Shown piece by piece: positions 13,540 through 61,630 of a DNA stretch of 64,000 nucleotides (positions are counted from its first letter, which is position 1; every line of letters begins with the position of its first letter). The stretch spans positions 1-64,000 of the forward strand of contig QPGO01000120.1 of the NCBI GenBank assembly GCA_008632985.1, in the 5' to 3' direction. The stretch comes from Psammoneis japonica (taxonomy: Eukaryota). The notes beneath the pieces were generated by a model, which saw nothing but the letters and a program-made list of their open reading frames with translations, had not been told where the DNA came from and made no database searches. The translations under genes were made by a program, and so were the position numbers.

Positions 13540-15570
13540 TGATAAAGAAGCCTTGGTGATCAACACTCTGATCTGAGGAGCTGCCTCCCGAACTTTTGTG
13601 AAGAATGGCTTTGAAAGTGCACTTGACGTTGGGCACACTGGTGCTTTCCCAGAGGGGTCCAGTTTCCTTGCACAATTGTTTTGGCAAGGTTGATGAGGAT
13701 GGTCACCTTTGTGAGCAACAGATGGCCGCAGGCATCATGGCAAGTTTCTCTCTCGTCTCATCTCTGGCCTGCCCCCCCNNNNNNNNNNNNNNNNNNNNNN
13801 NNNNNNNNNNNNNNNNNNNNNNNNNNNNNNNNNNNNNNNNNNNNNNNNNNNNNNNNNNNNNNNGCAAGTGCCACACTGATGCCAGCCATCTCTTTGGTGT
13901 GCTTTTCCAATGATGAGGGCACAAATTCACAAATCATCAGCGGCGAAAATGGTGCTCGTCTCTGTGATGCTTGTTTCAAAAATGATTGTTTTGATGCCAC
14001 CAGCAATCCCTGTCCTGTGACTCATGTGTGTGACTTGTGGCATTGTGGCGAGAAAGTCAAGTGCTGTGTTGAATTGCAGTTGTGCATCTTGTGATGCAGT
14101 GTCATCTTTTGATGTTCTGGTGCAAGGTGTTGACATTCTGTTGTTCATGTCATTGGCACTTTGTGAGAGACATGGATTGAGCTGTGGATTGTGCAGTCAA
14201 CCTTGGCAACCAGTGCTGCTGACCAATCTGGGGTGCATCAGGAACCACTTCCCATGGATTGTGCACAATGGCTGGACTTGGAACTGGACAAAACACCTGG
14301 ACTGACAAGTCAAAAGGCCACCTTTTGGGAAGGCAGGCAAATGAACAATTTCCCCCCAAACAGCTTTCAGACAACACCTGCATGCAAAACTCCACACATG
14401 TCCAGGTTGTGGGTCCCTCTGCATTTGCTGGGTCCTGCGATGGAAGCACGCAGCAAGTGGGAATGAACATGATGAATGAACTCTGGGGCGTGCCCTTGAC
14501 GTGCATCTCAACATGGGGAAAATCCAAGAGGGAGGCCATGCAGTGGAGTTGAGGGATGCAATCAAAGTGAAACAGGATGACTGTCTCAAATGCGCTGCTC
14601 CTGTGCAGGCCAGCTGGCCATTTTTGAGAGTCCTGGCACTGCTCAGTCTCTCCCGGTGGAGTTTCCTGTTCAGGGACCATCAGTGGAGATGGGTGAATGG
14701 ATGCTTGTTCTGACTCACAAGACATTGAATGGTTTGAAAGTTTGGAAAGATGATGACAAATGCTGGGCTGGATCAACATTTGGCGGGGGGCTAACACCAG
14801 CAAACAAGAAGTTGAAAACATGCCGTTGCTTCCAACTGCAAAGAAAACCTTCTCCAGAGAAATGCAATGAAAACAATGTCATGGATGCAACCAAGATCCT
14901 TGCACAATTTGTAAAGGGTGTCACAGAAGTTCTGGATCATGAGGATCAAGAGAGAGCCAATGGCCAAATCGCGCCATCTGATTTGTTGCGGTGCAAGGAG
15001 AACTCAGACATGTGATTGCGAGCAACAAAAAAACATTCCTGTTGAGGCTCAAGGAACAGTTTTTGACTGATGGCAAAGTTGCCTCACCCATGCCAGCTGG
15101 CAGCAATCTGTCAAGGTTCAACCTGATGAAAGTCCACACACCCACAAACTGGATGGAGTTGATGGTGTCACTTTTCCCACGCTGCTGCTGCTTGCCATGA
15201 AGGCAGCCACCACTCAGTGTGGCCTCAACGACAGAGCAAAGATGGTTTCAAGCTCTTGTCAGCACCTGTGGCAATCCCAAGCCTGAGGAAGATCTGGCTG
15301 ATCAATGGGCCAGAGAGGCCCACAGAGACATGTCCGGTCTTCTTTGACCCATGGTTTGCGAGTCTGCAGATCAAAGATGACCACCCGCCTCCAAAGCCAA
15401 CCCGCTCTTTTTGCTCTTCAAAAGAATTTGCAAAAAGGAAAAGATTGCTTGCTCCCATGATTGTCAATGACATGAACTGCTTTTTGGTTTCCCAAACCAA
15501 AAACAACCGGACAAGTGCCAGCCTTCCAACAGCGCAGTTTGTCATTGCTTTTTGGCAACATCCTTTTTTT
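13540..15570. mobile_element. Degenerate repeat relic spanning an assembly gap
   Basis: TpA/CpG-depleted, CA/TG-rich, only Cys/His-rich spurious ORFs; family not identifiable. Confidence 0.45.
13779..13863. other. Assembly gap (N run)
   Basis: 85 Ns. Confidence 0.99.
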
Positions 15571-29043: not shown

Positions 29044-29518
29044 AACAAGTGCTGCAGCTTTGTTTTACAAAAACAAAAAACTTTGATTGCACACGTGACA
29101 TGTTTGCTGCGGCAGACATTCAAACCAGCTGTGCTTCTGCCATGCTGTTTGTTTTTTTGTTTGCTGCTTGCTCAATTTGCTCGACAGCATCCAACCACCA
29201 CACGCAAAACAGAGACCTCAAGGTGTGCCTGCCCTCGAAAACTTTGTGAGTTTCTTGGCTGGCACAGAAGAGGTTTCAGCATGCTGGGTTTTTCTGGTTT
29301 CTGGCAAGAAAATGACGTTGGGCCTTGTGTGGCTTCCGGTGTGATCGGCTTTGTCAGCCAATCGACAACAGTCGTTTTGCACTTTGTTCATTTTGCCAAT
29401 CCCATTGGTGTAAATGCACTCACCAGTCAAGGACGTGAGCCCTGTTTGCAGTGTGATTACACCTGGCAGCAAGTTTGTCCTCTCTTTACAGCGCATGATT
29501 TGGCAAGATTGTCGTCGC

Positions 29519-30425
29519 TCAGTCGACAATTTCGTTTGGAAAGTGTTCCGCCAACAAATGTTCATGACAGTCCGTGCTCCACACCAAGGTCAAGGCGGGT
29601 GCTGCATCCGTGTTGTCGCACTTGACAGTGCCAGTCATTGTCTTTTCATCCAGCATGCCTTGAAAAATCGAGTCACCACCATCGTGCACGATTTTGACCT
29701 GGTCGTCAACATCAATCAAAAAGGACCAAATTGGCATGGGCAGATGACGACTCTGATCGGGAAGAAGCAGCTTTGGTTCCACAACATTGCCGTCCAACTT
29801 TTCCATTTGAACAACAACCAGCAGTGGAGGACACGGTGCATCTCCATCACAGGCATCATCATCTGGGCAGCCATGCCAACGGCCTTGCATCTCGATGATT
29901 GTCTCTGGATCTCCTGTCACTGCTTTTTCCATGGCAAACTGAATCTCACGAGGAATGATCATCTTCTTGTCTGGCGGTTTGCAATGACCACAATCCAGAG
30001 AAATGCTTCTGTGCCATGTTGCTTCTACATTCAGGTCATTTTATTTCCAGCCACATCATCAAGCTTTCCAATGTGCACACCATTGATGGCATCAAAAAAG
30101 AAAGATGAATCTCGTTGGCATCTGGATCAAACCTTGTTGCCATGGCGGGGATGAATTGACTCCCTGGTCCAGACTGTGTGTGAAGACTTGTCCGAAAATG
30201 GGAGAGATGCTTGAAAAATGAGGTGCAACTCTAAAGTGAAAGTGCCTTTCCAGTGTCCCACAACAGGCTCCCATTCGTCCTCATGATCAGTGTCCTGCTG
30301 CAGGCTTCAGCCTTCTTGAAAGGAGCAGAAATCGCACAATGACTCTTTGTCAACACCACCCTGAGGATTGTTCCATGCACGATTGTGAGAGCAGCAGTGA
30401 CAACAAAGGCTCCCGCTTTCTTCAT
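29519..30425 (-). pseudogene. Mutated duplicate of the gene at 35568-36494
   Basis: Collinear homology (CDGDAPCPPLLVV.QMEKLDGNVVEPKL) with frameshifts and Y->C/H changes. Confidence 0.92.
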
Positions 30426-31799
30426 GGTGTTGGTCAGCAAAGACATTCTTCAGAACAACCAAGTGACTCCAACAAACAACAAGAGAGATGCCTCAAAAGA
30501 TCTGGTGGCTGCTTCTCTCCATGTGAATGCATTGCTGCACCGATGTGACAGTTGGGAATTCCATTGAACAGGAGAACTTGCTCAGGCAGGAATGAAAGCT
30601 GAAGGTGCATTGGTGCCTTCAGAGTGCGCGCCGTTGCATTGTGTCACAGCTGATGAAGCAAAAAGAAGTGACTGTCTCTCACAAAGCCAACCACCCCTCC
30701 CACAATGCCATCCGCTCAACTCTCAAGTCCCTGGGATTGACACTGTGATGAATGAGTTGAGTCTCGAGTCAAGTCACATTCGCGGTTTGTGGTTTGTGAC
30801 ATTTTGAGTTCACTTTGCCTTCAATCTTTGGTCATCAACACACAAAAGGAAGGGGCCAGCACATGCCATTGCGCAGAGTGCCCCAGCTGCTGCTGCTGCC
30901 ACAAGAAATGGCATTCCCATGGCAAGAAAACAGCTTGCATGCTCAACAATTTCGGCACTGCCCTTGACCTTCCCTGTCAATGTCTGACTGCTGCAGTGCC
31001 AGTTGTCATTGCCCTGGGAATCAATGGAGCCCTCCCATGAATCAAGACCAGCACACTGTCTGGCACTGAAGAAATGTTGCAAGAGATGCTGCTGGCATCA
31101 CTTCTGGCTCCAAAAGGATCTCTCTATGCCAGAAGTCTCTCCAGCTGCTGCAAGCCACACCAGCTCCAAACTTGATGCATGCACAGTTGGGAGCCATCTG
31201 CTTCTGCACCAACTGCACTGCTGTGGCACCTGCTTCTGTCTCTGGCCACTCTTCATCAAGCTGCTGCAATGTCAAAAGCACAGCCCTTTCACCCCATCCC
31301 TGAGAAAGCAAGAGCAGCTGCACACAAGAGAGCTGCAAACCAATCATCATCTGGGACTTGGGAGCAAGTGTTCCAATCTCACATTGTGCTGCCAACTTTG
31401 TTGGACCCCTTGAGAAGCTGGCTGCAATGCCAAAGCTCCAACAAATCACCAAGGGGCAGGAGCCCCTCAGCAACAATGTCAGTGCCTTCACTTCAGCCAA
31501 TTGTTGCACCCACCTTCAAGCAATCTTCAATCAAAAGAAGTGTCAAAATTTGCCAGTGGTGCAGGTGCTCACCACCATCATTGCAGAATGTGCCACATGC
31601 ATGGTCATGTCCATTTCATGCACAATGATGTTGCATGTGCTGCAATTCATTGACCAGATCTTGCCAACACTGTGCTCTGGTCTTTTGCTGTCATCATTCT
31701 GTTGCCTTGCCCAATGCAGTGCCCGACCCCTCCTCCATTGGATTCAGCTCCCAGGATGTCTTCAAAAAGACTCATTGGCTGCATTTTTGATTCAAGGAT

Positions 31800-34200
31800 T
31801 GTCATGTTTGGGGGTGTCCAATTCATGTGCTTGAAAAGAAAATTGCTGTTAGAAAGAAATTGCCAAGGTGGCAATCCCACAGCACCAGCCAACACCACAT
31901 CGTGTGTGTGGGATGGGTTTCAGCACTGAGCGTGCATCCTTGGTCCCACCAGTGCTCAGCCTTGACTCAAGCATGATCGCCCCACAATTTGATGTTGTTT
32001 TTGACAACTGGTTTGCTGCTGTTGGATTAAATCAAGATAATTTGCCAGCCATTGACACCCCAGAATGGTGGTCTCTCTTTGGAGACAGTGTGAGCCAATG
32101 CACTGTGGATGAGGAAGATCAACTGGAAGGCAGCATTGAAGCACATGATGAATGTCATCATTGTCTGTGTGAAGTCCAAGCTGCCACCAAGTCATGACTG
32201 CCCCCAGCTCTGCCAAACATGACTCCTCCAGCTGTCCAAGCCCCACCCTCTGTTCCTGTGGCTCCCTCAAGTGCTCCAGCAGCATCAATGGTGGTGCCTC
32301 CCACTCAGAACAACCCACTGGCGCCACCATCCCAGACTTGCCTCAGAGGGAGAGGGCCCAACCGTTGCCACCTGGTGTTGATGCCAGTCCTCAATGAGAG
32401 CCCCATTCATCCCAAAATTTATCTCCCAGAGACTCAGTCAAGTGAGGGAGCCTCTCTCACACTCCAACAGAGGGAGCAAACTCCTCCTGCTGCCTTCAGA
32501 CATTCTGCTCATGATCAAGTCCCTCCAAAGCATCACATGCACAATGGCACCCATGGACATGACCACTTGGCTCATTTTTCTGACCTTCTTTGTGTGCGCA
32601 CATTCAATCATGGCTGTCCCATCACCACAACTGCTTCTTTGGTGTGCAAGGCTGAGGACCTGAGACACCCTGTCCTGGGATGAGGCTATGCACAGCCCGG
32701 AATGCAAAAAATTGTTGCACTTGGCAGAAGAAGAAATTGTTGCCCTTGTCCAGCAAGGTGCTTGGACCAAAGTTCCGCTGTCTGAAGCCAAGACCAGGAT
32801 GCTCCCTGGCACCTGGGTGTTCCATCACAAGTGCTCCTCTCCATCTGGCAAGATCAAAAAATGCAAGGCTTGCTGCCACAATGGCAGGGATTTGCAAGAT
32901 GGCATTTTTGACACCTGTGCTCCTGTTGTGACTTGGAGTGTGGCTTGATTGTTCCTTGCATTCAGTGTCATCATGGGTTGGATCGACATGTTGGCAGATT
33001 TTCAGCCTGCATTTGTGCAACAAGCTGTGCTCACAAAGCAAGAGAGCCAGTCTGGATTCATTTGCCTCAAGGATGCAGGTCTTCTCTTGGCCCCAGGATT
33101 TGTCTGAAGCTCAACAAGAGTCCAAGTGGACTCTCTTCTGCCCCAAAGTTGTGGCACAAGCACTGCACTTGAGCTCTTTTGGATCTGAGATTCATCCAGA
33201 GCAAGTTTGATCCCCGTCTCCTGCTCCATCACAACTGCATGGTCTGTCTCTGTGTTGATGATTGTGGGGGGTCAGTGCAGCACATGGCTGTGAGTCTGCC
33301 ATTGACCAGGTTGTCAAAGGACTCAGCAAGAAGGCTTTGAATTGACTGAGGAAGGCAGCTTCGCTGAGTTCCGGGGTGTCAAGTTTGAGAAGTTGGATGA
33401 TGTCACTGTCAAACTGCAGCAGCATCGGTCAATTAAACAGATTCTTGATGCCACTGCCACTGGTGCACAAGAGATTGCAAGCCCAATGTTTTGTGGTGAC
33501 CCCAGCTCTTGGCAGTGATCCTGATGATGAGTCCATGGAGATGAGGCTTGGAGCTGTCCCTCCACCATTGGCATGCTTCTGTGTCTGTCCACCAATGCTT
33601 GCCCTGACATTGCTTTGGCTGTCAGCCAAGTTGTGCAGCTCAGTTGGCTCAGCTTCCAAGCAGCCTCATGCTGCTGCTGTCAAGACCCTGATCCATTGCG
33701 TCAAAAAGACTTGTGCCAACAGGATGTTCTTGTCTCCAAAGGGCACTCTGGACCTTGACTTGTGGGTGAGCACCAATTTTGCTGGTCTCTTCCATCAAGA
33801 GCTGGACTCCAATCTGAGCTCAGTTTGATCTCACACATGCCACCTTGTCGCCCTCAACAGAGGTGCCTTTTGGTCTGGAAGTCACAGCTCCAGATGGCTT
33901 TGTCCTGCTCCACCATTGAAGGCAAGTGTCAAGCTGCTTCCTGTGCCCTCAGAACCCTCTTGCTCTTGAAGAGGACATTGCAGCAGATTGCATTGACACT
34001 TGATGCTTGTTGCGACCTCACGACATGTTGATCTGTGCATTGCGAGCATTTGAGGATGACAACCCCGGTGCCTTTTTCCCTGCCAAGTGTTTCCTCATCA
34101 AGCGGCATTGGTTTTGGCCCCATGGTCATGAGTTTGATGTCATCAAGGTTGAGTCAGCAGATCAACTCATGGATTTTCTCTCCAAGCCTTTGACAAGAGA
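31800..34200 (+). mobile_element. Heavily degenerate Ty1/copia remnant (end of IN, RT, RNase H)
   Basis: Relic motifs LPGTWVF, GKIKKCKA, LNKSPSGLSSAPKLW, CVDD (33251), CPDIALAVSQ, WKSQLQ, DQLMDFLSKPL; many stops. Confidence 0.8.
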
Positions 34201-35175: not shown

Positions 35176-35567
35176 ATCGTCTTTTCGTCAATTGCTACTC
35201 TATTTGCTCGACACATCCGTCCACCACATGCAGATCCTTTTGTCTCCATTCCTGGGAGACCTCGAGTTGTGCCTGGCCACGAGGGCTTCGTGTATTCTTT
35301 GCTGGCACAAAAGAGGTTTTAGCAGGCGGGTTTTCTGGTGAGAAAATGAAGTTGGGCCTTGTGTGGCCTCCCGTAGCATGGTCGGGTTCGCCAACCAATC
35401 AACAATAGTTCTTCGAGTCGTTGTGTACATTATTAATGTCGTCAATCCTGTTGGCGAAAATGCATTTGCCAGTCAAGGAAGTGAGCTGTACCATTTACAA
35501 CATGGTTGCACGTAGTAAGTTTGACCTCTATTATTTACAGTGTATGATGCGGCTAGATTGTCGTTGC

Positions 35568-36494
35568 TCAGTTGACAGTTTCCTTTGTAGACTGTTCCGC
35601 CAACACATGCTTAGGATAATCCTTACTCCACACCAAGGTCAAGGCCGATGCAGCATCCGTATTGTCGTACTTGACAGTGCCAGTCATTGTCTTTTCATCC
35701 AGCGTGCCTTGAAAAATCGAGTCACTACCATCGTGCACGATTTTGACATTTCCTTCAACGTCAATCAAAAAGGACCGAATTGGCACGGGCAGACGACTCT
35801 GATCGGGAAGAAACAGCTTTGGTTCCACAACATTGCCATCTAGCTTTTCCATTTGAATCACAACCAACAGTGGAGGACACGGTGCATCTCCGTCGCAGTC
35901 GTCATCATCTAGGTAGCCGTGCCAATAGCCTTCCATCCCAACAATCGTCTCTGGATCTCCTGTCAAAACTTTTTCCGCGGCAAACTGAATCTCACGAGGA
36001 ACGCTCATCTCCTTGTTTGGCGGATCGTAACGATCGTAATCTAGAGACATGCTTCTGCCGTGTTGCTTCCACGTTCCGGTCATTTTATTTCTAGTAGCAT
36101 CATCAAGCTTTCCAATGTACACACCATCGATGGTATCAAAAAAGAAATGAATCTCGTTGGTGTCTGGATTGAACCTTGTCGCCGTGGCGGGGATGAATTG
36201 ACCTCCCTGGTCGAGACTGTACGTAAAGACTTGTCCAAAAACAGGCGAGACACGAAAAATGAGGCGCAACTCCAAACTGGGTGGCACACCCAGAGTGCCT
36301 TTCCAGTATCCAACAAGAGGTTCCCAGTCGTCCTCATGATCAGTGTCCTGCTCTAGGTTTTGCCCTTGTTGATTGGAGTAGAAATCGAAAAAGGACTCTT
36401 TATCAACGCCACCCTGAGGATTCTTCCACACGGTAGCGGCAGCGTAAAAGACTGCTAGAGCAGCAGCAATAACAAAGGCTCCCACTTTCTTCAT
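35568..36494 (-). CDS. Uncharacterised signal-anchored/secreted protein
   Basis: Intact ORF from MKKVGAFVIAAALAV with normal Tyr content; two W.G.L beta-rich modules; conserved against its decayed duplicate. Confidence 0.75.
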   Translation of the reverse strand: MKKVGAFVIAAALAVFYAAATVWKNPQGGVDKESFFDFYSNQQGQNLEQDTDHEDDWEPLVGYWKGTLGVPPSLELRLIFRVSPVFGQVFTYSLDQGGQFIPATATRFNPDTNEIHFFFDTIDGVYIGKLDDATRNKMTGTWKQHGRSMSLDYDRYDPPNKEMSVPREIQFAAEKVLTGDPETIVGMEGYWHGYLDDDDCDGDAPCPPLLVVIQMEKLDGNVVEPKLFLPDQSRLPVPIRSFLIDVEGNVKIVHDGSDSIFQGTLDEKTMTGTVKYDNTDAASALTLVWSKDYPKHVLAEQSTKETVN

Positions 36495-37153
36495 GGTGTA
36501 TTCTTCAGAATAACTCCAACAGAACAAGAAGTGAGACGCCCAGAAAAGATCTGGCGGCTGTTTCTGTCCAAGTGAAAGCGTCGACGGTTGGGAATTCCAT
36601 TGAACAGTAGAACCCTGCTCAGGCAGGAATGAAAGGTGAAGGTGTATTCGGTATTGCGGCTATTATAAGGGCCCTCTATCGTGTATCGTGTTGCGTTGTG
36701 TCTGGCTGTGACAATGAAGCGAAAAGAAGTGGCGGGACTCAAGGCATGACTCGATTCCCCCGACTGTCTCTGAAACCGTAACAATCTTTCAAAAAGATAC
36801 CAAAAATTTTCGAAATTCATCAAAAATCCTATTTTGAACAGAAAATTCAAAATTCATAGTCATTGACACCCACGACTGAAGGAGACGCGGCAACAACAAT
36901 CACAACAATCACAAGGGATCAGCTCAGCTAAACTATTGCATCAAAACATACGATCTCTTTACCAGCTTCAGCACCCTTGAATGAGGAGGAGATGAAGGTG
37001 CAATTCTTGTTTGTTTCAAGTTGTTTGCTAGTGTGGGCGAGCGCAGCAACAGAAGACACCGCTCACACAAATCATCAATAGGGAGCATCCGCCGAAGAAG
37101 AAGAAGAAGAAGAAGAAGAAAAGGCTCATATTAGCTTCATACCGGCTCCTGGA

Positions 37154-37705: not shown

Positions 37706-38347
37706 CTACATGAGTAGATTAGAAACTGATCTTTTAAAAATGCTGACAAACAATGTCTCTGACGCAGAGAGCAGAACTTAGCCTCTCCCCAAGTCTGTTT
37801 GCAAACTGCACGTGGCGTTGCGTAAGAATATTGGCCTGTCGAATACAAGAATCGACGTCGCTGACATTTTAGACGTCGTTGATAAGATGCCCATAGCTAC
37901 AAGAACTAACTCTAGAGCTCTACGGTACTCTAGTAGAGTAGAAAGGGCCTAACTTTTAGCGAAACTAAACGATGCAAAATGGAACAAGGTGTGAAGCACA
38001 TGCACCTAAATCAGGCACGAAGCTTCAATCCGGCGCAGTGCTGAGTGCTGACTGCGTTGCTGTGTTGCAACTTGCAACACTCAATGAAAAAACCTAGTAT
38101 AGCATCTTGGGCACATTCATCCAAAGTTTGAGACTCTTCATTCGCTTCCAGCTTCGATTCGCTGCATTTCTTTGTCCAAAAGAGGTCAGGCAAAACCACT
38201 TCAGGAGAGCGATCCGGGGTTTTAAAATTATCATAGATTTCAGAGCGCTGCGGAAATTTCTGTGGGCGCAACGAGTACAGCAACAGTACAGCCATACTGG
38301 TAGAAAAGTTTAAAAACCCGGTAAAGAGAAGAACAAGAAGAAGAGTT

Positions 38348-39694
38348 ATGTCCCTCGTTTCATCGTCAAAAAAGATTGTCATTGTTGGCGGTGGTCCGAC
38401 GTCGCTGTTGCTAGCGCATTACTTGGTCCGCCGCCCCGGATACGAGGTGCACATTCACGAGAAGCGTCCCGATCCCCGAGAGCTCTCTCCAGAAGAGGTC
38501 CGGACATATCCCATTGCCCTGCAGCAGCGTCGAGGACTGGCTGCCATTCGACAAATCCCCGGCCTCGAGGCTGCGTTGGAAAAGCGAGGCGTTTGGGTCG
38601 CCGGCGCGGCGTTGCACGGCAAAACGAAGAAACCAATCAAAATTGCACGGCCCTTGTTTCTAAGCATTGATAGGAATGATATTCCGCTTACGTTATTGGA
38701 GGAGCTTTCTCAGGTCGAACATGCTCCAAAGAGTTCTGTGCAATCGCACTTTGATAGCGCTGTAGAGCAAGTGGATCTAGACCAAAAGGTAGTAACGGTG
38801 CGAACGGTGAAGGACGGTACCAACAAAGAGGTCACACGACAAGAATCGTTTGATCATCTTGTGGCCGCCGATGGCGCCCGCTCCGTCGTGCGTGAACTGC
38901 TGTTGGAACAAGAGGAATTGGAATGGTGTAAAACTGAGGAAATTACGGACAATTACAAGTCTTTGTATTGTGCGAGAACAAGTCGCAACGAAGGTGTCGA
39001 TCCACTCTTGTCGGACCATCTCAACAGTTGGATGCTACCCGGCAAAAAGACTGTGATAATGGCCCCCAGTGGACGCAACAAGGAGCATCTCAACGGCGTT
39101 ATTGTGTTTCCCGAAGAGGACGATCCTTTTGCTACGCTGGACGACGCCTCTGCCGTTAGGAAATATCTAAACGATCTGTCGCCGCACTTGGCAGGATTCA
39201 TGTCGGACGAAGAAGCGGAGAGTCTCCGGACGCGTCCCGTTTCCACGTTACAAACAGTCAAGTGCAGCTCCTTGCAGGTGCGAGATGGAACCGTCGTGTT
39301 GCTTGGTGATGCCGCTCACGCCGTGTCGGCCAGTCTGGGACAAGGATGCAATTCGGCATTGCAGGATGTCCAGATATTGGCTGGATATCTTGATCAGTTT
39401 GATGATGATTGGAGTCGAGCAGTGCCCGCCTTTGCAACTGAACGATTGCCTTGCGCTCATGCAATCAAGGAACTGTCTGACTGCAGCATGCCCCGGACCA
39501 AGTGGCTGCGACTGGAATTTGTGGTGAGACAAATCATGTGGAAGCTTTTGCCGTCTTGGCTGGGTCGTCGTTGTTTGCGGCCACTTCCAATGCAGCTTCT
39601 GACAGAAACCGACTTGAGCTATTCTGAAATATTGGAAAAGACCCAATGGTGGGTCGATCGTGTGAAGCGGTCTGTAGGGAAGAATGAAGAATAA
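38348..39694 (+). CDS. FAD-dependent monooxygenase, kynurenine 3-monooxygenase-like
   Basis: IVIVGGGP, EKRPDPR, AADGARS and LLGDAAH...GQGCNSALQD fingerprints. Confidence 0.88.
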   Translation: MSLVSSSKKIVIVGGGPTSLLLAHYLVRRPGYEVHIHEKRPDPRELSPEEVRTYPIALQQRRGLAAIRQIPGLEAALEKRGVWVAGAALHGKTKKPIKIARPLFLSIDRNDIPLTLLEELSQVEHAPKSSVQSHFDSAVEQVDLDQKVVTVRTVKDGTNKEVTRQESFDHLVAADGARSVVRELLLEQEELEWCKTEEITDNYKSLYCARTSRNEGVDPLLSDHLNSWMLPGKKTVIMAPSGRNKEHLNGVIVFPEEDDPFATLDDASAVRKYLNDLSPHLAGFMSDEEAESLRTRPVSTLQTVKCSSLQVRDGTVVLLGDAAHAVSASLGQGCNSALQDVQILAGYLDQFDDDWSRAVPAFATERLPCAHAIKELSDCSMPRTKWLRLEFVVRQIMWKLLPSWLGRRCLRPLPMQLLTETDLSYSEILEKTQWWVDRVKRSVGKNEE

Positions 39695-40850: not shown

Positions 40851-41097
40851 CGCTAAAGTGGCAGCAGCTGCATCTTCTGAAGTCTTGATACGTTGGGTAG
40901 TTCTTCGAAAAGAAATTCTCGTTGTGTCACGAGACCGTGATCCGTTTTCAGAGTTGACGGCGACAGCAAAATGTCTGGAGTATAATGTGCCATTTCTGCA
41001 ACCTGCAAAGACACTTGCACCGGGTCTCCTCTCTCTTTCTTTTTTTCTCTCCTTCCACTCTTCTGTTTTTGGATGCGAAATTCGATTCTTGTCTGGC

Positions 41098-41689
41098 TGT
41101 CACGTCGTGCTCATGACCCGACACTTCGAGACGTCATAAAGAACAATAGAGAACTACGGACAGAACCTATATACATCTACGTGAACATACATCAAGAGAC
41201 ACATGCATGCTACATCATGAACAATTATCCAACATCTTCCTCCTAAGTAAACAACCGGACACATGCGGAAAGCGATAGTAAACAACTGGACACGTGTATC
41301 ACTTCCTAAGTAAATCGAGAAGACATTATTTCTTAGCCGAACTTCAAGTTCCTTTTCAGCCAATCCGATTCTCACAAGAAAACGGTCGAAACGATGAAGA
41401 GCGAATCGGATCTCTCGATTTTTCCCGTGATACCTTCGGACACCATACGTGACCTCCTCAGAAGTCCCAAGACGTTCCCTTAGACGATATACACTTAAAG
41501 AAGAACCCAGGAACGTTCCTACATAACGAGAACAGAATTTCTCTGGAAAAGAAAGAATCGAAAGAACATTCCGCGAGATCACCGCTCCAGAAATTCACTT
41601 CATAATTTTACACTTTTATAGTCTCACTTTTCATGAACGACTCTTAAAATCACCACAATCACCCACAATAGGCCTTGTGCCACATGACA
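41098..41689 (+). repeat. 5' LTR of gypsy (TpA-intact)
   Basis: Direct repeat of 47122-47707. Confidence 0.96.
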
Positions 41690-41719
41690 TTTTGATCAAA
41701 CAGTGGCGTGTCATTATAA

Positions 41720-44700
41720 TGATGCCGCCTCTCAGCATGGTACTGAGCATTCTACTCAAGGCGAAGAAAGCCTGCGTACGCAGCCCCCAGTTCGACGGAA
41801 CTGAAGAATGGCACTTTAGAGCGTTACCTCAAGATAATACTTATACAGCACAGGAGGACATGACTAGTCAAGCGATTGTGAAGTTACACAAGTCGCACCC
41901 CCAAGTAGCGGACGACGTTGCGAGCCTAATCAAGTACAAGGTTGCGCCAGACCCGGGAGAACCGGAAGACACGGTGGCATTCTATATCCATCAGTGTGAT
42001 ACCTCCATCAAGGAGAAGTACCTAGTCTTTTTAAAAGACTTTAATGAGCTAAGAACGGTCAAGCACTGGACAACAGGACCAGCACTTCATTGCCAGATGT
42101 CACGCCTAACCAGAGGCTCCATCAAGGACCGATGTCAGAGAGCGGTAAGAGCTCTAGTTGAAAATCCAGAAGAACTTACCCCTGAACAGTTTGATGCAGC
42201 AGTGGAGACAGTCACTGCTGGACTGCTTCCTCGAGACTCAGCGGCAGTGCAGAAGCAGTACTTGCGCTCCATACGCAAGCCAAGAGAAACTACCTTCATT
42301 GAATTCACCTCCAGAATTTCGGAAATCAATGAGCTAGCACCCTACATGAGAGGCTCTGCAGAAGAGAGAGCCCCTCTCACGGACCAAGAGTTAACTTATG
42401 CAGCAGAGCATGCTGTGCCGGATGATTGGCGAGAGAGATTCCAACTGTCCGTCGGACACAGAGGTGAGTGTGGCATGGCAGACTTGGAGACATGCTATTC
42501 CACCATTGAATCCTTCCTACAGAAGAAGAAGGCCCAACAAGAGAGAAGGTTGTCAAACAACCAACGGCGATTCCAGAGACGTATCCCCACTCACGGCTAC
42601 CGAACCGCATACGGACATGGAGGCGACCGAGCGACACGACCGAGCAACAATAACAACAACAACGCCGGAGCTCCTCCCAACCAACCACATAGACATCCTA
42701 CTCGACACCAAGCCAACTTACAGCGTGGTGGGAACCGTCCTCAAGGCTATGGTCAACAGAGAGGACGTACCCGAACGAACCGGCAAGAAATGCGTGCCGC
42801 ACACGAGCCAGAAGAAGCTCCACCAGTCCAGAACCCGGACAACAGTATAGACTCAGCCCCAGCTGAACAACTGGAACAACTTAGCATAAGAGAGGATTCT
42901 GAACCTGAATCTTATGAACAAGAAGACGGACTTGAGATACCAGAAGACGATACGAGCTACTCTTATGAAGAATCAGACGGAGAATATGATACTTACGTGG
43001 AAGAGAACTATTGCGTTCTGTTGCCAGAAGACTTTGAGCTGCAACAGAGACAGAGACCTCCCATGGACCCAGCAGAAACAACTGATGCATCCAGCATGCC
43101 GGAATTCGTGCCGCACAGCGGATCAACATCGTCAGACAGCGATGATTTGTGGAGTACCGCCAGTAGTATGTCAACAGTATCGTCGACAACCTTACGTATG
43201 TCGTCTATGGACGAGCTGTCATCTTTTGGAGAAGATGCCGATGACGAGCATGAGGCTACAGCAGACAGCGCGGATGAGTGCGCATCTCTGACATCATCAA
43301 TTTTCGAGCATGACAACAGCACGGACGCCCAGGAGTTGATAGAAGCATTATATCCAGATGGAATGGACGATTGCGACTACGTAGTGTTCCCTCATGGGGG
43401 CACACATCCTACGAGAAGGAACTTGTGTGTTCCAGGTGACCCAGACGAATTCGAAGAAGAAGAAGGACATTCGAAAACGTCCGAAGACACCGAACCCTAC
43501 ACACATGAGCAATGTCGCTCACTTTCTCATCGAGCAACTGCCTCGAAGACGAAGCGAGCTGCATCGGCAGACGAACTCATGAACAGCGAGTCCGATGAGA
43601 AAATGTCAGCGGCTCCAGAGTCCGACACCGATGAAGAGAGCATCCACACGACGAATGAACTCATGCCAGCCGCAGCGCCTGAGCCACAACCAGCAGCACG
43701 AGTGCCTGAACCAGACCCTCAGAGTGATGGTTACGAGCATTTGAGTGCATCTAGTGGTCATGATTTCTTTTGCTGTGAACCTGGCACAGTGCACCTAGAT
43801 GATGAAGAGTGTCGCACTTGGTTCCACCAAGAAGAAGAAGTCTTTGGAGATGGCATGTCTGACCATCTCAGAGAACAAGAAGAGGAGCAAAGCAGCAACA
43901 AGAAGCCGAGAAGACACGCAGCACGAAAGCCTCAAAAATGTGGGTGGAAGAACCCCGGATGCATCGTGCGACTTCAACCACTCAATCCAGTTGATGGGAC
44001 TCGAGACAAAAGCAACAATGTTCCACTCGCCTCACTCGACAGCGGTGGCAGTCGAACAACAACAAAGAGAGATGTGCTCTCAAAAGAAGCACTGGACAAG
44101 GCCACCTTAGCACCAACAAGATGGGAGACCTTGTTTGCGCAGACCCATCAGACAACTCATGTCGCGCTCACTCGTTGTCGATTCCTTGATGCATCCTTGC
44201 ACAGACAATTCGATTTGTGCTTTTACATTTCATCATTGCAAGGAATCTGTGATGCCATTGCAGGACGAGATGTTCCATTCAAGCTTGGAATGAAGCTTGA
44301 TTTCCAGGAAAAAGTCATTGCTTGGGATGACTTGTCCTTTCTGATGAGATGTCCCGAGGATTTTTGGCACCGACCGACGACGCAAGAAGAGCTCATGGCG
44401 GCTCGTAAGGCCAAAGCTGTTCGCCCAAATGACTGTGGTCCCACAGAGGACTTACAAGAGTGTGCGCCCGAGCACTTGTCGAGAGAGCAAGGTGAAGCTC
44501 TCATTGCTTTGCCAGAAGACTTCTCCAGTCTCACGCAAGGAGAGCTCGGACAACATGTCAAGCGACCACCGGTCAACATTGAGCTCAAGCCCGGCACCGA
44601 GCCCACCTCACAGCACACCCCAGATCAACTGCAACATGGCAAAAGGAGAAGTGGAGAGATCATGCCGAGTGGGAGTTCTGAGAAGGATCTCAGACTCAGC

Positions 44701-47098
44701 TTGGGGATTTCCCTCAATGTTCGTGCCGAAGAAAGGCGGTGATTGCCGATTTGTCACCGACTTTCGGCTGTTAAATCAATGCATGCAACGACGCCCATGG
44801 CCTCTGCCTTTGACACCAACCATGCTCCGAAAGCTGCACGGCTGTGCTCATGTTACAGCGATTGATTTGAACATGGGATTTTTTACGATGCGGATCAGCC
44901 AGAAGAGTCAGCAGCATCTGACTGCTGTGCTGCCGTTCGGCAAATGTGCTCACTGCAGATTGCCAATGGGACTTGCACCAGCCCCAGACACACTCCAAGA
45001 AGTCATGACTGACTTGCCAGGACACTTGGAATTCGTTCTGATTTTTATCGACGACTTGTTGATTGTTGGCAAGGGATCCTTTGATGATCACCTCGCCCAA
45101 TTGCGCGAAGCATTTGTGCTTTTGAATGATGCAGGCTTTAGAGCAAACTTGCGAAAAACTTTCTTTTGCGCTCTAGAAACGGAGCACCTGGGGTTTGTCA
45201 TTGCTGGAAACGGAATCAAACCGCAACCCAAGAAAGTCAATGCGATTGTGAATTTGGTTTCACCCAAAACAAAGAAAGAACTCAGAGGTTTTGTTGGAAT
45301 GACAAACTTCTGTCGCGAGATGTGGTGACTTCGTGCCCATCTGTTGACACCTCTTTCGAGTGTGACCTCGAAAGCGGTCAAGTTCGAGTGGAAACCCGAA
45401 CACGAGCAAGTGTTTCAAGAAATTAAGAGACGGATCTCCACCGAGACGCTTCTTGCCCACCCTGATTTCAACAAGATGTTCCACATCTACACCGATGCTT
45501 CGAAATGCCAGCTGGGAAGCGTTGTCATTCAAGACAAGCGCCCGACAGCGTTCTGCTCCCGCAAACTCTCCGACACGCAAAAAAGACATCCAGTTGTCGA
45601 ACAAGAACCACTGTCGACAGTCATGACGCTACGAGAGTGTCGTGATGTCCTGTTGGGTCATAGGATCACGATCCACACGGATCACAAGAATCTGACCTTT
45701 GCAAATTTCAAGTCAGACCGCGCACGTCGTTGGCGACTGATCGTTGAGGAATTTGGTCCCACGATTCTTTACCTGCCGGGAGGAAAAAATGTGCTCGCGG
45801 ATTTCTCATCACGTGCCGCGACCATGACTGGCGACCCAGAGATGCCAGCTGCAGATCCAATGCTGGAAGAGTGTTTCGCCTTTGAATGCGACGACAACAC
45901 TCATTGTCCCATCTCGTTTGACACGATTGTTGAAGCACAGCAAGATGATGCTACGTGCAAAAAAGCATTGCAACTCACTCGAACCGACCCGAGTCGGAAA
46001 GAATTGTCTGACTGCAGTTGCATGGTGCAGGATGGACACCTGCGCCTGGTCCTTTTTAAGGACAAGATTGTTGTCCCTACAACTTTACAAGCACCTCTGT
46101 TGAACTGGCATCATGTCAATTTACGCCATCCAGGTGTCCAACGAATGGAAAAGACCCTCAGGCAGTGCTGTTGTTGGCAAGGTTTGACCCGAGACGTCAA
46201 GACCAAGGTGGACCAATGCCAGACCTGTCTACAGTCAAAAGAGAACCGCAGAGTGTATGGAAAAACACCTCTCAAGGACATGCAAGCCCTTGAGATCGAC
46301 CCCTGGTTGCAGGTGGCAGTCGACACTGTCGGACCGATTACCTTTGCTGCTGGTGCCGGCGCCAACCGACGAAGTTTGACGTCAACCGCCCTCACGATGG
46401 TAGATCTAGCTACTCATTGTTTTGGCATGGAGCAGATCTCCACAGTCTCAGCTCTGGAAGCTGCCAGAGCATTTGACCAAGCGTGGTTGTGCAAATTTCC
46501 GCGCCCGGTCTGTTGCACACACGACAACGGTGCGGAATTTACAGGCATTGAATTTCAAGAACCACCAGTTTCTCATGGGATTGAGTCTAAACCTGCGACA
46601 GTGTGGAACCCACAGGCGAATTCACTGCTTGAATGGACCCACGATGTTTTGTGGAGCTGCACACGGGCCCAACAAGTCGATGATCCCGACGCATTTAATC
46701 AACCGAATCCGTGGAGTGCGACAATGGCCTCAGCAACTTGGGCGATAAATTCGACGGCACATGCCGTCATGCAAGCCTCTGCTGGCCAACTTGCTTTTGG
46801 AAGAGATGTGATCCTTCCCTTGCAATGCAACGTCCACTGGCCGACCATTTGTGCTCGCCGCCGACAACAAGCGCAAGCAGATGACGCGCGTGAAAACTCT
46901 CGGCGACTCGACCATGACTTCAAAGCAGGAGACCTTGTTTCTCTCCGAAACGACAACCCTCGTCGATCCAAACTCGCCTTACGCCGACTTGGCCCATGCG
47001 AGATGCATGAAGTAAAGTCCAATGGCACCGTCATCATCCAAAAAGGAAATTACCTCGAGACCGTCAACACGCGGCGTCTCGTTCCTTTCTCTCCCTGA
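41720..47098 (+). pseudogene. gypsy gag-pol, disrupted
   Basis: PR LDSGGS; RT RFVTDFRLLN, LPMGL, FIDD; RH YTDAS, TDHKNL; IN HPG...CQTC, VAVD, DNGAEF. Frameshift near 44620 and a TGA stop at 45326. Confidence 0.92.
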
Positions 47099-47121
47099 TG
47101 CGATTCATTGGAGGAGGCGCG

Positions 47122-47707
47122 TGTCACGTCGTGCTCATGACCCGACACTTCGAGACGTCATAAAGAACAACAGAGAACTACGGACAGAACCTGTGTGCAT
47201 CTACGTGAACATACATCAAGAGACACATGCATGCTGCATGAACAATTGTCCAACATCTTCCTCCTAAGTAAACAACCGGACACATGCGGAAAGCGACAGC
47301 AAACAACTGGACACGTGCATCACTTCCCAAGTAAATCGAGAAGACATTTCTTAGCCGAACTTCAAGTTCCTTTTCAGCCAATCCGATTCTCACAAGAAAA
47401 CGGTCGAAACGATGAAGAGCAAATCGGATCTCTCGATTTTTCCCGTGACACCTTCGGACACCATACGTGACCTCCTCAGAAGTCCCAAGACGTTCCCTTA
47501 GACGATGTACACTTAAAGAAGAACCCAGGAACGTTCCTACATGACGAGAACAGAATTTCTCTGGAAAAGAAAGAATCGAAAGAACATTCCGCGAGATCAC
47601 CGCTCCAGAAATTCACTTCATAATTTTACACTTTTACAGTCTCACTTTTCATGAACGACTCTTAAAATCACCACAATCACCCACAATGGGCCTTGTGCCA
47701 CATGACA
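47122..47707 (+). repeat. 3' LTR of gypsy (TpA-mutated)
   Basis: 16 substitutions and two 3-bp deletions relative to the 5' LTR. Confidence 0.96.
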
Positions 47708-49746
47708 TGTCATCTGGGTCACATCCACGAATGGCCACCTTCACCGTGACGCTCCAAATCTTCGTGCAGCTGCGCAAACTGCCCTCCCACTGGTCAGGGT
47801 TGGTGCCATTAAAAATTTCGGATACTCTAGGATGAATATCCTCATTTCCGCACTCTCTCACCAACTCTCTTCTGTTTGGTAGTATGTCAGCAAAATTCCG
47901 CATCTTTCTGTCGCGTGCCTCTCGTAAGTGCTGAAAAAACAAAGCTTGCAGGTGAGGGACAAGCTGTCCCAAAAGACCGGTGACGAACACACATGTGTTG
48001 CGCCATTTTCCATACACAGCGTGAGTTCCTCTTCCATTTGAAATCGCTTTCACTTCTCGATTTCCCTGAAGGCGATCATCACATCTGGGACAAGGACAAT
48101 AGGGCTGGCATCTGTTGAACACGGGCGGATCGCACGAAGAGCAGACGAACAAAAAGGATCCAGTTAGTCGAGTCGTGTATTCAAGTTCATCCGAGTAGCA
48201 CGATCGCCCAGATGGAAACAGTATAGTAGGTCACGCCCCGACGCGCGCGATCGGGCAATAGTAGATATATGGAAAAACACCAGTCACGACCTCGTTCATG
48301 ATTCACGCGTTCGCATACATGGACAATGACGCTCCGAAAATGCCAATAAACCGCATCACCGACCCTTGAACCAAAGTCATCAACAAGACGAATACAAGGT
48401 AGAGACAAACGTTGTTGTATGCATACAACAAAAACCAAATGAATCCATCAACAGAGTCGACAATCAATTGTCAGAATTCCGCCACGGAAACAATGGTCCA
48501 TGGCCGTGGAAATACCAAACTTGCAATCGACGGTATCAAACAACGATAATAACAACATGTCGACGAGACGTGCGTCGTCGCCTTGATATGACAATCAAAT
48601 GAATGATTCACAAGCATCGACGATTACACCCGTAGAATCAAAAGTCTACAGAACATCATGGACCCACGGTGGAATGTCGGGATTTTCGAACTTTGAAACG
48701 ACGGTATCGAAACAGTGACGATAACAATACGACGACAACACATACACAACAAGCGTCGTGATATTTGTGCAACAATCAAATGAAGAAATTGATAGCGACG
48801 ACACAAAAGAGTTCGTCAAACCGCGCGCGAAAAACCACAAAAGCTTCCACGGACGATGTACGCCGAATCAATGAATGGAGCCTCCGAAAAACGATTCGTA
48901 CTGCTAGCCCTTACCTTGACAGAGTTGGGTGTGTAGTACAATGGCGTAAGAAGAGGTGTCAATGAAGCAATGCTAACTTCCTTGCGATTCGATGGCGAAC
49001 GCGAGAAAGTGTGTGTTCGGCTTGATGTGTGTTGCGTGTTGCGTGAAGATTTTAGCGCGCACGTCTTAGCTACGTACTTTGGGCGGTCGTGCTTTTGGAG
49101 CTGGAGAACGATCTCCGTAAACCGAGACATTAGGACAAAAAAAAATGACAAGGAAAGCACGTGCGGAATCGCTACAGGAACATTGTATGAGACTGGACCC
49201 AGTCCAATCCACGACGTCGGGGCCAAAAATGAAGAACCAAATGACAAGACTAACTTTGTAGCATCTGAGCAGGAGCCAAGTGACAATGAAGCAAACGGCA
49301 GAACGAATCCGTGGCGATATGACGAAGTATAAATGACGCCCGAAGTAACATGACAGGCGCGATTTGCATTGTCTTATGCTATCGGTTGGACGAGAATATT
49401 GCATTGAAGGAAATCCCATTATTTTGATTCACCACCTCTTGAATATCAGCCACATTTGGTACATTGTAATAAGCAGTAATGTTGCCTCGTCGAGCATTGT
49501 CGGGTCGGATGCGACAAGCCATCATGCAAGCGTCTTTGGCGGCCTTCAAGTAATCGTCACGATCCGAAACAATCAAGAGTATTTCCGGTGGTCCTTTTCA
49601 GACAAGTCGTCTCGAAACTCGTCTCATTGATATGGGTGCGTGCATGGCCGAGGAATTGAACCGAAACAATCCAAAACATCCAGCATGGCACCACCTTTCA
49701 AGGGCAGGTGAACCCTGTAGCAACAGAGATTCGGATCGACGGTTCT

Positions 49747-50892
49747 TCAGCGGTAACTCGTCCTAGAATTACCGCTGTCGAGCCTCCCCGGGGTGACCAG
49801 CCCTGGCTCTCGTAAGCCGCCATGCAGAATTTGAAATGCAGCCAGGGAGTCGCTGCAGACAACTCCAAGACAGCCACCTGTAATGTTGGAGACCCAGGTG
49901 GACAGGTCTGCCGACCAAGTAGTCAATATCGCCATCTCCGTGCAGCATGGACATCCGTTAGATTGTCCCGATGCCGCTAGTCCGTAAGAATGTGTGACGT
50001 CGACGGGTATTCCCAAGTCAGCGACCCGATCTACATAGTCAATCTTTTGGCTTGCCTCTTCTTCATTTTCCAGCATCCGTTCCTGAAAGGCATCAGGTGC
50101 TGTTTTCCCACACACATCACAAGCAGTCAGATCCGGAGGATCATCAATGTCAACTTGTTGCACCAGATGGTACCCTCTACAATGCTTGTCGTGGCAGCGG
50201 AAGCGCCGGGAGTCGTCTCCAGTCAATGACATGCATCTATCGCATCTGCAGTCAAAGTCCTTCACTCTCTTTAGCTCGGCTCGACGGAGGAACATGGGCT
50301 TTTCCAGGTACTTTTGGTCAAGATAGTTGATAGTTAGCATCTCTCCAGACTGGATGGGCGCAATCACTCGCACTATCTTAGAGCAACCGTCTTGGGAGCT
50401 AAACCAGACACAGTTGGGACGACATGAGTGTGCCATTCGACATGCGACTTCAAAGAGACCGTGCCCCTTGTAGCTTCCGGGCCCACCGCCGTCAGCATTG
50501 ACTGGTTGAACGGCCACAGTATTGAATTTGATCACCATGAAAAGACGAGTGAAGCGCTCGGCACATTCCTGAGACTCGACGTATTCAGACACAAACTCAT
50601 GTACTCGACGAGCATCGGCACATTCCATGTCAACATAAAACGACAAAACCTTTTCTTGGATGTCCTCGGGTTGCTCCAAAAAGTACAAATAGTCCGGCCA
50701 GCTTCGCTCATGCAGCTCTCTTCTCGATCGTCCCCACAGTGGTGAGACTGTACGGTCGTGAGGAGGGAAGACAATCAAAGCCTTTTCTCGAAAGGCTTCC
50801 AGCCCTAAAGTGCCTGGAATCAAATCGGTCTGGGCAACAACAGCATTCCCAAAGCCTTCGACCTCCTGGATTTTGACAAGTTCCATTTTCAT
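49747..50892 (-). CDS. SMYD-like SET-domain protein, C-terminus probably rearranged
   Basis: GFGNAVVA, RMAHSCRPNC, GEMLTINY and post-SET FDCRCDRC motifs. Confidence 0.8.
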   Translation of the reverse strand: MKMELVKIQEVEGFGNAVVAQTDLIPGTLGLEAFREKALIVFPPHDRTVSPLWGRSRRELHERSWPDYLYFLEQPEDIQEKVLSFYVDMECADARRVHEFVSEYVESQECAERFTRLFMVIKFNTVAVQPVNADGGGPGSYKGHGLFEVACRMAHSCRPNCVWFSSQDGCSKIVRVIAPIQSGEMLTINYLDQKYLEKPMFLRRAELKRVKDFDCRCDRCMSLTGDDSRRFRCHDKHCRGYHLVQQVDIDDPPDLTACDVCGKTAPDAFQERMLENEEEASQKIDYVDRVADLGIPVDVTHSYGLAASGQSNGCPCCTEMAILTTWSADLSTWVSNITGGCLGVVCSDSLAAFQILHGGLREPGLVTPGRLDSGNSRTSYR

Positions 50893-51625
50893 TCTCTTGT
50901 CTTGTTCATCGAGATTGCAGTGTGCTCAATGCGTTGTTTCTGCTGGGATGTTTTCGGGTTTTAATGTGAACGATGTCTCCGCGTGATGATGATGTGTTGG
51001 TTGCACTCAACGGACGGACGTGATAGACATACCGTGCCGTCGTGGAGACGATGCTCTTCGGTTTACAATTGTGTGCCAGAGTAAAGAAAAGAGACTATGA
51101 AAAGCACTTCCCCATTCTCCATTATATCTGAGAATGGGCTCTTCTTTGGAAGCGCTCTAGGTTGATGACTGATGCGACGGTCTTTGATTCGATTTTCCCA
51201 GGGTGAAATATGTCGTCTCGAGGAAGAGCTTGCCTTGGACCCAAGCCAGGCTTCAACCGTCTCTCAGCTGATTTCAGACGGCCGTCATGCTTGCTGCATT
51301 TGGTAAATCAAAGCCTCGTTGAAAAGCTACAAAATGTTCTCCTTGGCATGGAAGGGATGCATTTACGATAGAAGCACAGGGTTTCATTCAAAACTCACAT
51401 TTCAGAACAAAAAGAAAATTGCTATTGAGACATTTCTGTCTGTTTTGGCACCGGTACGATACTGTAGAAGAACGAAATGATCCGTGCTCCGAGTCGGGTC
51501 GATCTATCTAGCCGTTGTTGACCTCGAGCAAAACCAGTTGAAACTTTCACGAGCAACACCCCATGCAACATTACACAAGCTGTTGCCCCACCAGAAAGAG
51601 TCAGGATGGAGATGGCAATGTTTCA

Positions 51626-60434: not shown

Positions 60435-61630
60435 GAGGCTTTGTTTTGCCAAACGCAGCAAGCATGCAACAGCCAACTCAAAATGCACCGAATCTTGCAC
60501 GCCATCATGAACGGCCCGCGACCACATCATGACCAACAACTCATTGACTCATGACTGCCGTCTGAAATCAGCTGAGAGATGGTTGAAGCCTGGCTTGGGT
60601 CCAAGGCAAGCTCTTCCTTGAGATGACATGTTTCACCCTGGGAAAATTGAAGCTAAGACAGTCGCATCAGTCATCAACCTCGTGCTTCCAAAGAACAGCC
60701 CATTCTCAGATACAATGGAGAATGTGGAAGTGCTTTCACAGTCTCTTGTCTCTGCTCTGGCACACAATTGCAAACTGATGAGCATCGTCTCCACTCGGCA
60801 TGGCATGTCTGTCACGTCCCGTCTGTTGAGTGCAACCAACACATCATCATTGCGCAGAGACACAGTTTGCTCAAAACCCAAAAATGTCCTGGAACAAACA
60901 ACGCATTGAGCACATTGCAATCTTGATGAACAAGAAAAGAGAGAAACAATGGCGGACTGTTTGCACTTTTTGGAGCAACCCAAGGACATCCAAAAACAGG
61001 TTTTGTTGTTTCATGTTGACATGGAAAATGCCGATGCTCGTCGAGTGCATGAGTTTGTGTCTGAACACTGCGTTGAGTCTCAGGAATGTGCCGAGCGCTT
61101 CACTCATCTTTTCATGGTGATCAAATTCAATGCTGTGGCTGTTCAACCAGTCAATGCTGATGGCAGTGGGCCCACAAGCTGCAAGGGGCATGGTCTCTTT
61201 GAACTGTGTCTGGTTTGGTTCCCCAAGACAGTTGCTCTGAGACAGTGCGAGTGACTGCGGCCCATCCCAGTCTGGAGAAATGGCTGCCTCAAGCAGAAGC
61301 ACTTGGAAAAGCCCATGTTCCTTCACCAAGCCAAGCTGAAAAGCACTGAGAACTTTGACTGCAGATGCAGCAGATGCATGTCATTGAATGGAGATGACTC
61401 TCAGTGCTTCCGCTGGGCTTCCATGACAAGCACTGCAGAGGGTGCCGTCTGGCGCAATGAGTTGACATTGATGATCGTCCGGATCTGACTGCTTGTGGTG
61501 TGTGCAGGAAAACAGCACCTGATGCTTTTCAGGAATGGATGCTGGAAAATGAAACAAGAGGCAAGCCAAAAAATTGACTGTGCAGATCGGGTCACTGACT
61601 TGGGCACACCCGTTAATGTTGCACATTGTT
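60435..61630 (+). pseudogene. Inverted, mutated duplicate of the SET gene region about 49990-51320
   Basis: Reverse-complement homology including upstream sequence; ADARRVHEFVSE..VESQECAERFT shared; deletions and Y->C/H changes. Confidence 0.92.

Follow-up and report, generated by a model that had tools for sequence, protein, structure and literature searches.

TpA loss concentrated in the 3' part of a young Ty3/gypsy element suggests positionally aimed hypermutation of chromosomal DNA

We analyzed a 64,000-nt stretch of contig QPGO01000120.1 (the window), from a host that is probably a diatom, and focused on a Ty3/gypsy retrotransposon with long terminal repeats (LTRs). The two LTRs of such an element are identical at integration, as a result of reverse transcription, and differences between them therefore arose in chromosomal DNA. 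The pair is thus a built-in before-and-after experiment, with copies that were identical at the start. In this element, nearly every substitution between the LTRs is TA in the 5' copy versus CA or TG in the 3' copy, and the 3' copy adjoins an interior tract from which most TA is missing. We consider it highly probable that, after insertion, a positionally aimed, DNA-level hypermutation of TpA to CpA or TpG hit the 3' 4.3 kb of the element and spared the identical 5' LTR.

The LTR pair and the adjoining TA-poor tract

A first-pass annotation, made from the sequence alone, had reported a gypsy LTR pair at 41098..47707. Direct-repeat search and MAFFT alignment located the pair on the + strand, with the 5' LTR at 41098-41689 (592 nt) and the 3' LTR at 47122-47707 (586 nt). 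Both are of the form TG...CA, beginning with TGTCACG and ending with CATGACA. Differences were scored with a scripted Biopython alignment. The LTRs differ by 16 substitutions, all transitions, and by two 3-nt indels (41212-41214 and 41325-41327). At seven sites the 5' LTR has T and the 3' LTR has C, with A as the next base; at another seven the 5' LTR has A and the 3' LTR has G, with T as the preceding base. An eighth site of the latter kind, at 41211-41215, lies beside a 3-nt indel and is TA/TG as aligned by MAFFT, although Biopython aligns it as a transversion. In total, then, 15 of the 16 substitutions are TA in the 5' LTR versus CA (7) or TG (8) in the 3' LTR, as the annotation had counted, with this one site depending on the alignment. 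The sixteenth is CG in the 5' LTR versus CA in the 3' LTR, at 41403. That remaining change had also been called correctly, and all five strings that the annotation gave as examples occur in the sequence.

The differences run one way. The annotation held that the 5' LTR has TA at every such site, and indeed none of the 17 TA dinucleotides of the 3' LTR is private to it. Conversely, the 33 TA of the 5' LTR correspond in the 3' LTR to CA or TG (15), to TA (17), or to a position inside an indel (1). All 33 are present in the 5' LTR, which has no detectable post-insertion loss of TA, and the alignment contains no double differences of CA versus TG. One casualty is a TATA-like run at 41168-41173 in the 5' LTR, whose counterpart at 47192-47197 reads TGTGTG. 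Outside TA, divergence amounts to 1 substitution per about 520 nt, and the insertion is therefore young.

Both the specificity and the one-sidedness are statistically strong. The 66 TA nucleotides, out of 592, account for 15 of the 16 substitutions (binomial P = 7e-14, the test against dinucleotide availability that the annotation had proposed), and the 15:0 split between the LTRs gives P = 6e-5. Put differently, 15 of 66 TA nucleotides changed, versus 1 of 520 other nucleotides (odds ratio about 150, P = 2e-14); within the pair, TA erasure runs about two orders of magnitude ahead of any other substitution type. Loss of TA (15 of 33) also far exceeds loss of CpG (1 of 32; Fisher P = 8e-5), which supports the annotation's suggestion that TpA loss is well above CpG decay. 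Flanking-base preferences beyond TA gave nominal P values of 0.007-0.12, exploratory values based on 20 kept sites counted in both orientations, and we claim no such preference.

To describe TA content more widely, we used the fraction TA/(TA+CA+TG), the observed/expected ratio in 300-nt bins, and rho in 2-kb bins. A likelihood change-point falls inside the element, at 43424-43500 (twice the log-likelihood difference, 57). To its left, in the 5' interior (41690..43423, +), which is itself partly TA-depleted, the TA fraction is 0.219 (73/333); to its right it is 0.055 (37/672). The 5' and 3' LTRs have fractions of 0.311 and 0.162, and comparable values for the flanks and for two host genes are 0.18-0.23 and 0.16-0.18. 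The 300-nt bins give the same picture, with observed/expected ratios of 0.46-1.02 at 41100-43499, 0.00-0.36 at 43500-47099, and 0.36-0.70 downstream of the element. By this measure the 5' LTR scores 0.69 and the 3' LTR 0.40. Bins rich in host genes score 0.46-0.66, so the 5' LTR is normal-looking rather than TA-enriched. The stripped interior, delimited by the change-point analysis as 43424..47121 (+), is contiguous with the 3' LTR, and hence the converted LTR is the one joined to the tract. Together they span 43424-47707, about 4.3 kb, and the neighbouring DNA is spared, as the flank values indicate.

Direction of change in pol, a host pseudogene and family copies

Pairwise comparison of the LTRs gives no direction by itself. 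We infer that TA is ancestral and CA/TG derived at the LTR sites; this polarity rests on continuity with the stripped tract and on the direction seen elsewhere, which is as follows.

The conserved tyrosine codons (TAY) of pol lie in the stripped tract and can be compared with those of relatives. When the RNase H-integrase frame was used as a protein query, 48 relatives were returned, with at most 51% identity (at most 43% for those covering most of the query), all from other families. When this frame is aligned with 24 relatives, 14 columns have conserved Tyr, and the element has Tyr in 3, His or Cys (CAY or TGY) in 6, Phe in 3, and another residue in 2. Conserved Trp is kept in 7 of 7 columns. 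A second alignment, of the reverse transcriptase (RT)-integrase region with the 13 relatives that reach into RT, has 20 conserved Tyr columns, of which 3 are kept, 8 are Cys or His (TGY or CAY codons), and 7 are Phe. All four columns with invariant Tyr in this alignment are Cys or His in the element. Tyr columns are kept far less often than other conserved columns (3/20 versus 228/324, P = 1e-6). None of the five conserved Tyr columns of the RT part is kept (Cys/His in 2, Phe in 3), and of the 15 downstream of RT, 3 are kept and 6 are Cys/His. The overall Tyr content of the RNase H-integrase frame is 0.7%, versus 3.1-4.5% in the eight relatives tabulated.

The adjacent host gene, a KMO-like gene at 38237-39694, served as a control. 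It has 160 of its 188 conserved columns intact, and Tyr persists at 5 of the 6 positions where it is conserved. The sole changed Tyr is TGC at 39482 (Tyr in 20 of 21 relatives), and it lies inside a TA-poor 300-nt bin of this gene (39300-39599; 2 TA, observed/expected 0.13). The coincidence of a TA-poor bin with a changed Tyr could be a stray hit or chance.

A second line of evidence comes from a host gene. An intact SET-domain gene (49747-50925, -) has a decayed copy, with stops and gaps, at 60955-61626 (+), inside a block stripped of both TA and CG. At least six Tyr of the intact paralogue read Cys or His in the decayed copy. At the DNA level, the two arms differ at 27 TA sites and 33 CpG sites; the intact copy has TA at all 27 of the former and CG at 31 of the latter. 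The block around the decayed copy (56-62 kb) has a rho(TA) of 0.11-0.12. Another repeat pair, 29212-30611 and 35256-36649 (about 85% identity), behaves similarly, in that the second copy keeps both TA (31:3) and CG (35:8). Thus, in the two older repeat pairs, TA and CG survive together in one copy (31:3 with 35:8; 27:0 with 31:2), which fits one ancestral-like and one decayed copy in each. The first copy, 29212-30611, adjoins a fully stripped block at 30-34 kb.

Finally, other copies of the element point mainly the same way. Among the sites listed, 11 within 42134-42800 have TG or CA in the window where 57-100% of the depth from other copies reads TA. Four sites are the reverse, with TA in the window where 14-100% of the other-copy depth reads CA or TG. 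At 41209, the only LTR position among those listed and not one of the 16 substitution sites, the single covering contig has TA, and both window LTRs have TG. At 44097-44098 and 44554-44555 the window has CA and all matching contigs of other copies have TG (6 and 3 contigs, respectively); here an ancestral TA, or possibly a CG, was struck on one strand in some copies and on the other strand in others. With four independent lines taken together (the adjoining tract, the pol tyrosines, the SET pseudogene and the 11 family sites), the annotation's view that the 3' LTR lost TpA is supported, the polarity at the LTR sites themselves being deduced from these comparisons.

The element, its family and other TA-poor sequence

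The element is a Ty3/gypsy LTR retrotransposon, as judged from its TG...CA LTRs and from the pol order of RT, RNase H and integrase. A long open frame in the gag/protease position (41527..44742, +; 1071 codons from stop to stop) has no Pfam match. RT occupies 44348..45328 (+; RVT_1, E = 1e-16), and 45329..47098 (+) carries two RNase H-like domains, the zinc-binding domain of integrase, and an integrase core that is weak and decayed. The core (rve) scores 19.6 bits, under the 32.6 cut-off. RT and RNase H-integrase share one frame, interrupted by an in-frame TGA at 45326-45328. A purine run read from the sequence, GGAGGAGG (47110..47117, +), resembles a polypurine tract and ends 4 nt before the 3' LTR begins. 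The 3' LTR is followed directly (from 47708) by a repeat of the LTR's opening five letters. TCTGG occurs on both sides of the element, 1 nt outside the 5' LTR and 5 nt beyond the 3' LTR.

Public contigs from one sample show a multi-copy family, since 933 of them match, at a depth of about 300-1400 versus 60-110 in the flanks; within the 64-kb window, no second copy of the element was found. Searches for relatives of the LTR gave nothing: a protein search with the LTR open frame, aligned from both LTR versions, yielded 311 candidates, none at E ≤ 0.001, and metagenome scans with LTR patterns yielded 0 matches to other LTR copies. In the protein searches with the host gene and with pol, all matches bearing the name of a eukaryote are diatoms. 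The host gene has three, namely Seminavis robusta, Amphora coffeaeformis and a truncated name, 'Helicot...'; pol has one, with the tag CCRYP, which we take to be Cyclotella cryptica. On this ground a dinoflagellate with modified thymine, considered at first as the host, was rejected.

Over the six frames of 41000-47800 (6.8 kb) there are 22 open frames of at least 100 codons. They probably result from the erasure of TAA and TAG stops, and gene prediction will call too many genes in this region.

TA is scarce in the window as a whole, with a rho(TA) of 0.32, rho(CA/TG) of 1.42 and rho(CG) of 0.74, and individual bins reach 0.04 for TA and 1.8 for CA/TG. The extremes are 8001-10000 and 30001-34000, where rho(TA) is 0.04, rho(CG) is 0.09-0.18 and CA/TG is 1.7-1.8; these blocks consist of complex sequence rather than satellite, and they look like the end state of a TA-erasing process. 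CpG decay, much slower than TA loss in the LTRs (1/32), is nonetheless near-complete in the older stripped blocks. A copia-type element (RVT_2; interior 2754-7981) has LTRs at 1093-1374 and 7924-8205 with 95% identity and 13 differences, of which eight are TA versus CA/TG (TA in the first LTR in six and in the second in two), four are double differences of CA versus TG, and one is another transition. The window also contains a run of N, an assembly gap, at 13779-13863.

Mechanism, alternatives and known systems

The data establish the substitution spectrum, its one-sidedness, the tract and where it ends, and which way pol and the gene pseudogene have changed. The LTR changes probably belong to the same tract-wise event or events. 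The sequence of events was probably as follows. An element with two identical LTRs would have inserted recently. Later, a process acting on DNA would have turned the A of 5'-TpA-3' into G on either strand, seen on the + strand as TA to TG or TA to CA. Its tract, about 4.3 kb long, would begin in the 3' interior at about 43.42 kb and weaken across the 3' LTR. Conversion would have affected roughly three quarters of the 3' interior TA and, in the 3' LTR, 15 of 33, with the 5' LTR left untouched. Such conversion would have killed pol through Tyr to Cys or His changes and erased the TATA-like run of the 3' LTR.

Two features bear on how the process was aimed. One copy of the LTR was hit while its identical twin 6 kb away was spared, and a sharp edge lies inside a single element of a multi-copy family. 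Both argue against aiming by homology and for aiming by position. The process thus seems to have been directed by chromosomal position or chromatin state rather than by sequence likeness. More generally, these features argue for a position- or chromatin-guided A:T-to-G:C mutator, with targeting at this scale that does not depend on sequence likeness. As for chemistry, the simplest would be deamination of adenine (to hypoxanthine) in double-stranded DNA. The choice of strand appears independent between sites: events of the TG and CA kinds form 6 runs in the LTR pair versus 8.0 expected (P = 0.21), and four repeat pairs combined give P = 0.66. An activity that recognizes the palindromic TpA in a DNA duplex fits this better than does a processive enzyme acting on a single strand.

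Several points weigh against this reading or limit it. Polarity at the 15 LTR sites is indirect, and when sub-repeats of the LTR are used by eye as internal outgroups, two sites favour TA and one (41297) favours C. Conversion declines along the 3' LTR, from 10/17 to 5/15, but not significantly (P = 0.18). No matching target-site duplication of 4-6 bp was found, the element being preceded by CTGGC (41093-41097) and followed by TGTCA, so the element may not be a simple single insertion. Part of the interior stripping could be older than the insertion, given that the 5' interior already departs at TA sites from the majority of other copies. Lastly, strand-coherent runs were not found, a result that speaks only against a processive single-strand deaminase.

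The alternative that fares best is that the element is a recombinant or a product of gene conversion, in which the part from about 43.4 kb onward, 3' LTR included, came from another, already hypermutated copy of the family, and the LTRs represent two insertions. We regard this as unlikely. It would account for the sharp interior change-point and for the failure to find matching target-site duplications, and the family is multi-copy. Yet, outside TA sites, the LTRs differ by only one substitution and two 3-nt indels, which would require both parents to be equally young. The 3' LTR is also less converted than the adjoining interior (TA fractions of 0.162 versus 0.055), which suits a fading tract. 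Moreover, recombination would still presuppose TA erasure of the same kind, and it leaves the polarity of the changes as it is.

Could the changes instead run the other way, with the 3' LTR ancestral and TA created in the 5' LTR by C-to-T mutation at CpA/TpG, as in repeat-induced point mutation (RIP)? The dinucleotides involved are those of fungal RIP, pairwise comparison is mute as to direction, and site 41297 favours C. Nevertheless, we judge this very improbable. TA is depleted rather than enriched, with rho values of 0.32 for the window and 0.04 in three 2-kb bins, and the TA observed/expected ratio of the 5' LTR (0.69) is as in host-gene-rich bins. In the interior, the direction of RIP is already contradicted, since conserved Tyr codons read TGY or CAY and Trp is intact at 7/7 columns. 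The SET pseudogene, too, lost Tyr relative to the intact gene.

A comparably slim chance attaches to ordinary context-dependent mutation or GC-biased gene conversion operating without a dedicated mechanism. TpA is under-represented in most genomes, and even the host-gene bins of this window have a rho(TA) of about 0.5-0.66. Such a background process would hardly raise the odds ratio of TA nucleotides to about 150 in one LTR and leave its twin with none of the changes, nor would it affect TA alone with edges that are sharp at the kilobase scale. Least probable of all is that the element's RNA underwent ADAR-like A-to-I editing and reverse transcription then fixed the edits, in spite of a 5' U preference that resembles ADAR's (discussed by Mettrop et al., bioRxiv 10.64898/2026.01.13.699255): this predicts edits in both LTRs and A-to-G on the sense strand only, whereas the LTRs here differ and 7 of 15 changes are T-to-C, and a gene pseudogene is affected as well. 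Indeed, the presence of changes on both strands (8 versus 7), together with the unlikeness of the LTRs, excludes RNA editing before reverse transcription.

Our wider proposal is tentative, and we hold it with less than even confidence. Diatoms may own a dedicated, position-aimed defence mutator that converts the A of every TpA to G in double-stranded DNA across kilobase-scale silenced patches. It would be old in SAR (stramenopiles, alveolates and Rhizaria), shared with chlorarachniophytes, and far faster than CpG decay. It would remove Tyr codons and TATA boxes, and also TAA and TAG stops, and thus form a functional mirror of RIP with another choice of target. A full-text literature search, with subscription journals outside its scope, found no description of such a TA-erasing process in diatoms. 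In practical terms, TA erasure creates long false open frames, recodes tyrosines and distorts LTR dating.

How does this signature compare with known systems? RIP, known from Neurospora and other ascomycetes, is a C-to-T process at CpA/TpG that creates TpA; it is aimed by sequence duplication and exposes both copies of a repeat. The likeness is that TA, CA and TG are involved, only transitions occur, transposons are disabled, and comparisons of LTRs or repeats are one-sided. Here, however, TA is destroyed, the change is AT to GC, and stop codons are removed rather than created. In addition, the identical twin 5' LTR has 0 changes versus 15, and repeat pairing fails to explain the aim. Editing of the APOBEC/ADAR type, known from animals, acts before integration on RNA or nascent cDNA and on one strand, and ADAR favours a 5' U. 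It shares with the present case the hypermutation of mobile elements with a dinucleotide preference. The changes described here differ in being post-integration, on both strands and unequal between the LTRs.

The closest parallel is the chlorarachniophyte Bigelowiella natans, from which TpA-erasing regional hypermutation is already known through one 2026 preprint; what we describe is a young instance in a probable diatom. The mutation-accumulation lines of that preprint had 231 mutations within two regions of integrated viral DNA, of which 230 were A-to-G or T-to-C (bioRxiv 10.64898/2026.01.13.699255). Every one of those GC-biased mutations hit a TpA; the rate was about 6e-7 per site per generation, and only some lines were affected. 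The mutation was regional, more than 1000-fold elevated, and located in integrated DNA of nucleocytoplasmic large DNA viruses (NCLDV) and virophages. Genome-wide, clusters and coding sequences poor in TpA and rich in CpA+TpG were enriched for RT and DDE domains, and Mettrop et al. propose adenine deamination in double-stranded DNA (bioRxiv 10.64898/2026.01.13.699255).

The two cases agree in several respects. In both, changes are A-to-G or T-to-C at TpA on both strands (here 15/16 LTR substitutions, and TpA in 15/15 of these, one being alignment-dependent). In both, they are limited to a region of foreign DNA and spare its neighbours (here the tract at 43424-47707, with 5/6 Tyr kept in the KMO-like gene). 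Both also involve long-term depletion of TpA with enrichment of CpA/TpG (window rho of 0.32 and 1.42). Beside the roughly 1000-fold elevation measured in living B. natans lines, the LTR pair offers an indirect ratio, the odds ratio of about 150 for TA versus other nucleotides. The cases differ in that the host here is probably a diatom, and so a stramenopile; that the target is an LTR retrotransposon, with a gene pseudogene elsewhere in the window; and that depletion is near-complete in older blocks (rho(TA) of 0.04), where CpG is lost too. They differ, furthermore, in that the tract edge here lies inside a single element and that the changes are read from sequence rather than followed in real time. 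If the process is the same as in Bigelowiella, a major group of marine primary producers would have a transposon-disabling system still undescribed for it. By sequence pattern, the signature in this element matches that of the B. natans preprint.

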